The notes under the pieces are model-generated. The model was not told the DNA's origin. It saw nothing but the letters and a program-made list of their open reading frames with translations, and did no database searches. Positions 10,214 through 11,885 of a stretch of 64,000 nt of DNA are shown in pieces. Origin of the DNA: Escherichia coli. GTDB lineage: Bacteria; Pseudomonadota; Gammaproteobacteria; Enterobacterales; Enterobacteriaceae. The stretch lies in assembly GCF_046105845.1 (NCBI RefSeq), contig NZ_CP151004.1. One strand, 5' to 3'. The first letter of the stretch is position 1. Each line of letters starts with the position of its first letter. The position numbers and the translations under genes are program-made.

Positions 10214-11885
10214 ATGAATATAAAGACGCTTAACGTCAGCCTTTTGTCTTTTTCTATTATTACAGCATTGTTTCCGTTGAACGCGATGGCAACAAAATTA
10301 ACCATAGAGCAGCGCCTTGAACTGCTTGAAAATGAATTGTCGCAAAATAAACAAGAGCTAAGAGCAACACAGAATGAACTGGGGGTATATAAATCCCGAC
10401 TTTCGACCTTACAAAAAAGTATTACGGAAAATAAATACAAATCAGCCTCACTTGCTGAAATATCAGCGACATCTCCCGTCGCTGATAACATCAAAAATGA
10501 AAACGGTGAACAGAACTCGTCTGCCGCAGCGCATACTATAAATGGATCGCAGCAAGTTGCCGTTATTGAAAGTAAAGGCGACAAAACCACTATCGAAAGC
10601 GTGACCCTGAAAGATATCAGTAAATATATAAAGGATGATATTGGGTTCAGCTATCAGGGGTACTTCCGCTCAGGCTGGGGTACCGGAAATCATGGCTCAC
10701 CACAAACTTATGCAGCGGGTTCTCTGGGACGTTTTGGTAACGAGATGAGCGGTTGGTTTGACTTAACCTTAAATCAGCGTGTTTATAATCAGGACGGTAA
10801 AACGGCAAATGCGGTCGTTACCTATGATGGCAACGTAGGTGAGCAGTATAACGATGCCTGGTTTGGTGACAGTGCCAATGAAAATATCATGCAGTTCAGT
10901 GATATTTATCTGACAACGCGAGGTTTTTTACCCTTCGCGCCAGAGGCAGACTTCTGGGTAGGCAAACATAAACTCCCGCAATATGAGATCCAAATGCTGG
11001 ACTGGAAAACCTTAACCACGGATGTCGCTGCGGGTGTGGGGATTGAAAACTGGGCACTTGGTGTAGGGCTGTTTGATATGTCCTTAAGCCGTGATGATGT
11101 CGATGTTTACTCTCGTGATTTTACGCGTACCAGTCAGATGAATACCAATTCTGTGGATGTTCGTTATCGCAATATCCCGTTATGGGATGATGCAACATTA
11201 TCATTAATGGCTAAATATTCCGCACCAAATAAAACGGATCAACAACAAGATAATGAAAATGACGACAGTTATTTTGAAATGAAAGATAGCTGGATGCTGA
11301 CTTCTGTTTTACGGCAAAACCTGCAACGCGATACGTTTAATGAATTTACGTTACAGGTTGCCAATAATTCCTATGCCAGCAGTTTTGCCAGTTTCTCAGA
11401 TGCCAGTAACACGATGGCGCATGGTCGCTATTACTATGGTGACCATACCAATGGGATCGCCTGGCGTTTAATCTCTCAGGGCGAGATGTATCTTACTGAC
11501 AATATTATTATGGCTAACGCGCTTGTCTATTCTCATGGCGAAGATGTTTATAGTTATGAAAGTGGCGCTCATAGTGATTTTGACAGTATTCGCACCGTAG
11601 TAAGACCGGCCTGGATCTGGAATACATGGAATCAGACGGGGCTTGAATTAGGCTGGTTTAAGCAACAGAACAAAACACAGCAGGGTGTAACACTAAATGA
11701 ATCGGCTTATAAAACGACACTCTGGCATGCATTGAAAGTGGGTGAAAGTATTAGGTTCACGACCAGAAATTCGCTTCTATGGGACGTATATCAATATTCT
11801 GGATAACGAATTATCGAATTTTAAGTTTAATGAGAACAGCAAAGACGAGTTTATGGCCGGCATCCAGGCGGAAGTCTGGTGGTAA
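10214..11885 (+). pseudogene. Carbohydrate-specific outer-membrane porin (LamB/ScrY/BglH family) with a +1 frameshift near the 3' end
   Basis: ORF 10214..11806 (530 aa) has a signal peptide, an N-terminal coiled-coil ([28 protein letters not shown]) and a LamB-like barrel, but stops at ...[13 protein letters not shown]. The +1 frame from about 11757 reads [42 protein letters not shown] (stop 11883-11885), the expected porin C-terminus. Span 10214..11885 is 1672 nt, 1 mod 3. Confidence 0.7.

Follow-up and report, generated by a model that had tools for sequence, protein, structure and literature searches.

The porin examined in this study has its closest described relatives in LamB and ScrY (PDB 1MAL, 1MPR, 1A0S/1A0T), with which it shares the 18-strand sugar-porin fold and a conserved C-terminus of the form ...RPxIRxYxTY...GxQxExWW. 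With ScrY it further shares an N-terminal coiled-coil extension, seen here as a Sugarporin_N match at residues 30-56 and as a helix spanning residues 31-74 in an AlphaFold2 (AF2) model. It differs from both in its sequence, which is 16-24% identical to the solved porins, and the allele described below differs further in having lost the last two strands of the barrel. A second point of reference is BglH of the cryptic bgl operon, which is likewise a LamB-family porin within a silent beta-glucoside PTS operon, although it belongs to another operon at another locus. BglH is dispensable because small glucosides also pass general porins. The bgc operon is also cryptic, being silent in wild-type strains.

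The gene order of the bgc operon has been given as bgcR, then bgcE-bgcF-bgcI-bgcH-bgcA (Neelakanta, Sankar and Schnetz 2009, Appl Environ Microbiol 75:2284, cited in PMC3585215). The same order and the same gene families, a GntR regulator followed by IIB-IIC-IIA-porin-GH1, are found within the 64,000-nucleotide stretch of DNA analysed here, which we refer to as the window. Judged by gene order against the account in PMC3585215, the island in the window matches the bgc beta-glucoside operon and its porin matches bgcH. It departs from the described operon by two deletions, one of 2 bp in the porin at the bgcH position, private to this lineage, and one of 451 bp in the IIC gene. We consider it highly probable that the bgc beta-glucoside/cellobiose PTS operon, an accessory locus that is normally silent, has recently and in this lineage alone lost the function of its sugar-specific porin gene through the 2-bp deletion.

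The window is an E. coli-type chromosome segment running ydfG, dcp ... eamA, island, marBAR, marC ... lsr ... hipBA ... ydeP, yddAB. The island, flanked by eamA and marB, comprises a GntR regulator in divergent orientation, PTS IIB, IIC and IIA genes, a LamB-family porin and a GH1 6-phospho-beta-glucosidase, and it is accessory, being present in 2553 of the 5426 complete E. coli genomes in RefSeq. Its features are as follows.

7625 to 8323, minus strand: GntR-family regulator at the bgcR position, intact and divergent
8522 to 8833, plus strand: PTS lactose/cellobiose-family IIB at the bgcE position, intact
8948 to 9819, plus strand: remnant of PTS IIC at the bgcF position, frameshifted by a 451-bp internal deletion
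9847 to 10158, plus strand: PTS IIA at the bgcI position, intact
10214 to 11885, plus strand: whole porin pseudogene at the bgcH position, 1672 nt long where intact alleles have 1674 nt
10214 to 11806, plus strand: truncated open reading frame of 530 aa, with 513 native and 17 out-of-frame residues
11733 to 11749, plus strand: near-repeat TGAAAGTgggTGAAAGT, ancestral and in frame, coding for LKVGES and lying outside the lesion
11750 to 11755, plus strand: the lesion, ATT/AGG, left by the loss of 2 bp from a T4 run (ATT TTA GG in intact alleles)
11753 to 11885, plus strand: stranded native C-terminus, Gly515 to Trp557, with beta17, the last loop, beta18 and the ...AEVWW signal
11886 to 11909, plus strand: spacer of 24 nt, with a Shine-Dalgarno sequence AAGGAG at 11898-11903 serving the downstream GH1 gene
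11910 to 13349, plus strand: GH1 6-phospho-beta-glucosidase at the bgcA position, intact

Assignment of the neighbouring genes draws on profile matches of unequal strength. The regulator has GntR-family matches in NCBIfam that all fall under the curated cut-offs, and it is collinear with a gene annotated as GntR in E. coli AR_0067, with no internal stops and two amino acid differences. The IIB gene matches TIGR00853 and NF007796, also under their curated cut-offs, and Pfam PTS_IIB was matched on the identical IIB gene of a related contig (L005). The GH1 gene scores 1032 bits against NF007154, exceeding the cut-off of 624, and has no internal stops and three amino acid differences.

The preliminary description of this stretch had reported a 530-aa open reading frame that stops at 11806 after ...WDVYQYSG and a canonical aromatic outer-membrane-protein C-terminus left in the +1 frame, and both statements held up on the sequence. 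The 513 native residues comprise the signal peptide, the coiled-coil N-terminal extension and beta-strands 1-16. The conserved porin C-terminus, ending AEVWW at 11885, is encoded at 11742-11885 in the +1 frame only, and the stranded tail is identical at 44 of 44 positions to the C-terminus of an intact 557-aa E. coli allele. The orthologues of Citrobacter, Enterobacter, Salmonella and Kluyvera are 557 aa long and in frame, and they hardly vary across these 44 residues. As had also been noted, the span 10214-11885 is 1 mod 3, at 1672 nt, where intact E. coli alleles have 1674 bp and encode 557 aa. Since the out-of-frame tail matches the end of a conserved domain, the frame break is far beyond chance. 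No further disabling change is found in 11753-11885, and this intact state of the stranded coding sequence fits a recent event and leaves residual use possible. We considered a split porin in which a 47-aa open reading frame starting at GTG 11742 would supply the last hairpin, and rejected it because this frame, by inspection, has no signal peptide and its product could not reach the periplasm.

The ancestral porin stop lies at 11883-11885, with the GH1 ATG at 11910, and here the earlier account was right about the 24-nt distance and went too far in reading it as tight coupling, as this is a normal operon spacer with its own AAGGAG. In intact alleles the porin frame, the stop-free 24-nt spacer and the GH1 frame are one and the same, so that loss of the porin stop would join porin and GH1 into a single gene. 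Other E. coli assemblies encode porin-GH1 fusions 630-749 aa long (P0016, P0017, P0019, P0061).

Membership of the porin in the LamB/ScrY sugar porin family, and the truncation of the window product, are both evident from the Pfam LamB model (PF02264), which covers the intact allele over 1-378 of 378 positions (E = 1.2e-81) and the window product over 1-333 of 378, ending at residue 513. The identification of a frameshifted porin made at the outset was therefore sound. A profile of 40 homologues matched LamB at E ~1e-115 and ScrY at 4e-43, and aligned the lost segment with the LamB C-terminus SRPAIRVFATY...FGAQMEIWW; a single-sequence phmmer search against the PDB returned no porin at E values up to 10. 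The NCBIfam maltoporin score of 204 bits lies under the cut-off of 394, and the porin therefore belongs to a separate subfamily.

An AF2 model of the intact allele, built from a 40-sequence alignment, has a mean pLDDT of 83, with the barrel above 90, and forms an 18-stranded beta-barrel. Its top Foldseek matches are 1mpr, 1mal, 8xcj and 1a0t at TM 0.74-0.78, with maltoporin (1mpr, 1mal) at 0.74-0.78 and ScrY (1a0t) at 0.77. The long N-terminal coiled-coil extension (10301-10435, porin residues ~30-74) is followed by a low-confidence linker of ~70 residues and then by the barrel, an arrangement that resembles ScrY rather than LamB. The last three strands of the model lie at residues 493-508, 519-532 and 545-556, with residues 509-518 outside any strand. 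Where the loss of a single C-terminal strand had been proposed, the model thus places two strands beyond the break, beta17 (519-532) and beta18 (545-556), together with a loop. In this predicted fold the window product is without beta17, beta18, the intervening last external loop and the C-terminal aromatic residue; the translated product ends ...YQYSG, and the C-terminal aromatic residue and beta-signal are absent from it.

The nature of the lesion was resolved by aligning 11650-11900 with four further alleles from E. coli, of which three are intact. The sole length difference from the intact alleles is a single 2-nt gap in the T4 run, and comparison with AR_0067 gave the identical gap. The other alleles read GAAAG(T/C)ATTTTAGGT where the window reads GAAAGTATTAGGT; at the junction ATTTTAGG has become ATTAGG, leaving TT at 11751-11752, and the frame shifts after Ile513. 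Just upstream, TGAAAGT occurs at 11733 and again at 11743, an offset of 10 nt, and is kept unchanged in all aligned alleles; this near-repeat (GAAAGTGggtGAAAGT) is ancestral in-frame coding sequence for LKVGES. Repeats of a 6-mer spaced 6-12 nt apart turn up once every ~380 bp across the window, eight of them lying inside the porin gene, and the TGAAAGT near-repeat is unremarkable.

The deletion creates a rare zero-frame AGG codon at the junction, which raises the question of whether the gene is leaky rather than null. Leaky or programmed +1 ribosomal frameshifting at ATT-AGG-T, with a stall on AGG and Gly-tRNA reading the +1 GGT, could make a "hungry-codon" site that arose by chance and yields some 556-aa porin, although we judge both the mechanism and this reading of the pseudogene to be very unlikely. 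AGG is the rarest arginine codon here, at 0.95 per 1000 codons across 45 window genes with none in the native part of the porin, and a +1 shift at exactly this codon regenerates the native downstream sequence. A partial Shine-Dalgarno-like GGTGA lies 4 nt upstream, and rare AGG codons reportedly promote +1 shifts in E. coli (Spanjaard and van Duin 1988). Leu514, which sits in the periplasmic turn leading into beta17, would be the only residue missing from this near-native 556-aa product, and since residues 509-518 are non-strand in the model such a one-residue loss might be tolerated. Against this, the tRNA-Ile in the P site has no way to re-pair on UUA, one AGG codon by itself would give low-level shifting only, and the later loss of IIC in the same operon argues against selection keeping the porin. 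The site is also derived and private, being absent from all 2547 E. coli genomes surveyed, with four other genera in frame. Of the features of a prfB-type shift, the junction offers the rare AGG and only the partial GGTGA 4 nt upstream, and the site is not conserved among orthologues. A recent loss of function thus remains our preferred reading of the allele.

Evidence on prevalence and inheritance bears on whether the deletion is real. Of the complete E. coli genomes in RefSeq, 2547 have the porin gene, and neither T2 nor T3 was found at its T4 tract in any of these. An exact-match scan for the deletion junction found nothing in the GTDB species-representative genomes, and no porin ending YQYSG was present outside the window lineage among the orthologues examined. 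Orthologues ending in this way would have spoken for a native C-terminus, and their absence favours a real frameshift. The exact 530-aa product occurs on five contigs, namely one NCBI chromosome (4,744,735 bp) and four Logan contigs, three of which come from runs ERR13115083, SRR28309099 and SRR12605517. Between these three run assemblies there are differences in the state of the IIC gene and at one SNP. Over 7.6 kb SRR28309099 matches the window at 100% identity, and it may be the read set of the window isolate, in which case it would not be an independent observation. ERR13115083 and SRR12605517 have the porin deletion together with an intact IIC gene, and one of them differs by the SNP. All lineage members examined share TT. 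The same product in separate, differing assemblies therefore marks the lesion as an inherited mutation of a small lineage.

These data leave a very slim chance that the lesion is a sequencing or assembly artefact, with the genome truly TTTT and the porin intact. The lesion does sit in a homopolymer, a classic site of indel error, and the possibility of an artefact had been raised at the outset; it is nevertheless reproduced in independent assemblies, the three listed Logan assemblies and the NCBI chromosome giving the same product while differing in IIC status and the SNP. Loss of 2 bp from a 4-nt run is moreover atypical of platform error. Apart from the 451-bp IIC deletion and a G7/G8 tract at which the window is intact, the 64 kb contains no other coding indels relative to AR_0067, and the assembly is therefore not error-prone; the remaining indels between the two are intergenic or lie in an autotransporter gene that is broken in AR_0067 only.

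That autotransporter is encoded in the window by an intact ESPR-type open reading frame of 1822 aa (35962-41430). Its AR_0067 counterpart is annotated as frameshifted and truncated, with G8 in place of G7 at a poly-G tract (window ~37323) that could be slippage-prone. The autotransporter C-terminus and hipB-hipA (41624-43230) lie in a segment, 38650-43327, that AR_0067 lacks; in its place AR_0067 has 8.7 kb of other content (an ISNCY remnant, LysR and others).

The window lineage is otherwise unrepresented among RefSeq complete genomes, with a best identity over 45 kb of 98.7-98.9%. In stretches of 20-25 kb across the window (1-64000), identity stays at or below ~98.9% for every complete RefSeq E. 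coli genome, yet the porin CDS is 99.88% identical to that of AR_0067. The lineage is therefore rare, and the bgc island seems mosaic when compared with the sequence on either side.

Two further accounts of the break carry next to no weight. A duplication-type insertion of ~10 bp beside the heptamer, as put forward in the preliminary description on the strength of two copies of TGAAAGT at a distance of 10 nt immediately 5' of the break, has a vanishing probability, as both copies are present in frame in every intact allele as part of LKVGES, the sole length difference is the 2-nt T-run gap just 3' of this ancestral repeat, and the pseudogene is shorter (1672 against 1674 nt) rather than longer. 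Equally negligible is a phase-variable contingency switch in which the T tract toggles the porin, a notion prompted by a homopolymer indel in a surface-protein gene, since the T4 tract of intact alleles and the T2 of the window are far too short for high-rate slippage, the whole lineage is TT with neither T3 nor T2 among the 2547 genomes, and the long tract and length polymorphism of a contingency locus are not seen here.

Loss of function in the porin is accompanied by a second lesion in the same operon. BLAST of related contigs (L005, L008, L001) against the window, together with the junction sequence, located the frameshifting 451-bp IIC deletion at 9328/9329, with 1 nt of microhomology. 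The remnant retains 127 native codons, followed by an out-of-frame tail that stops at 9424, and the mapped IIC CDS has seven internal stops; the related contig L006 has the same IIC split, into products of 158 aa and 132 aa. This deletion is common to the window and SRR28309099 and absent from ERR13115083 and SRR12605517. As the porin is already frameshifted in these two relatives with an intact IIC gene, its lesion preceded the IIC deletion.

Comparison of 49 genes with AR_0067 showed 47 to be intact, and the two that are disrupted, IIC and the porin, both lie in the bgc operon. A Shigella-style decay of the genome was considered and found no support, as the 64 kb contains no IS elements and no other broken genes. 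Of the parts of the bgc operon, the porin can be spared most easily, since small glucosides have a second route through general porins. Independent porin lesions were found in 4 of 39 genomes from an evenly spaced sample, about 1 in 10, and comprise 1-bp deletions in EC21Z-137 (CDS position 1400) and ET479 (CDS position 569) and IS1 insertions in 15.TR.026_OXA and 2017.18.04CC. Truncated variants of 533 aa and 408 aa are also present in the porin protein cluster. This pattern of lesions is in keeping with weak selection on an accessory operon that is normally silent.

Our analysis suggests a simple sequence of events. The loss of 2 bp from the T4 run most likely arose by replication slippage, after which the ribosome would read 17 foreign residues past Ile513 and stop at 11806. 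From established outer-membrane-protein biology, an 18-strand barrel without its last hairpin and C-terminal beta-signal would be expected neither to close nor to be recognised by BAM, and the truncated porin would presumably be degraded in the periplasm. With the last two strands, their loop and the C-terminal aromatic signal gone, we infer on the same grounds that the porin allele is null. The GH1 gene is probably still translated because it retains a start codon and Shine-Dalgarno sequence of its own. In the window strain, the 451-bp deletion of the IIC permease would then be a second hit that leaves the whole uptake pathway dead, and the course as a whole would amount to neutral decay under relaxed selection.

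In summary, the porin gene is a recent pseudogene of an ordinary kind; both its porin family and the cryptic operon around it are already known, and its significance beyond annotation is small. The porin should be annotated as a pseudogene frameshifted by a 2-bp deletion, not by an insertion, and the bgc locus of the window strain should be treated as non-functional because IIC is also deleted. The locus provides a small example of the stepwise decay of a silent accessory sugar operon, in which sister isolates allow the events to be placed in order.
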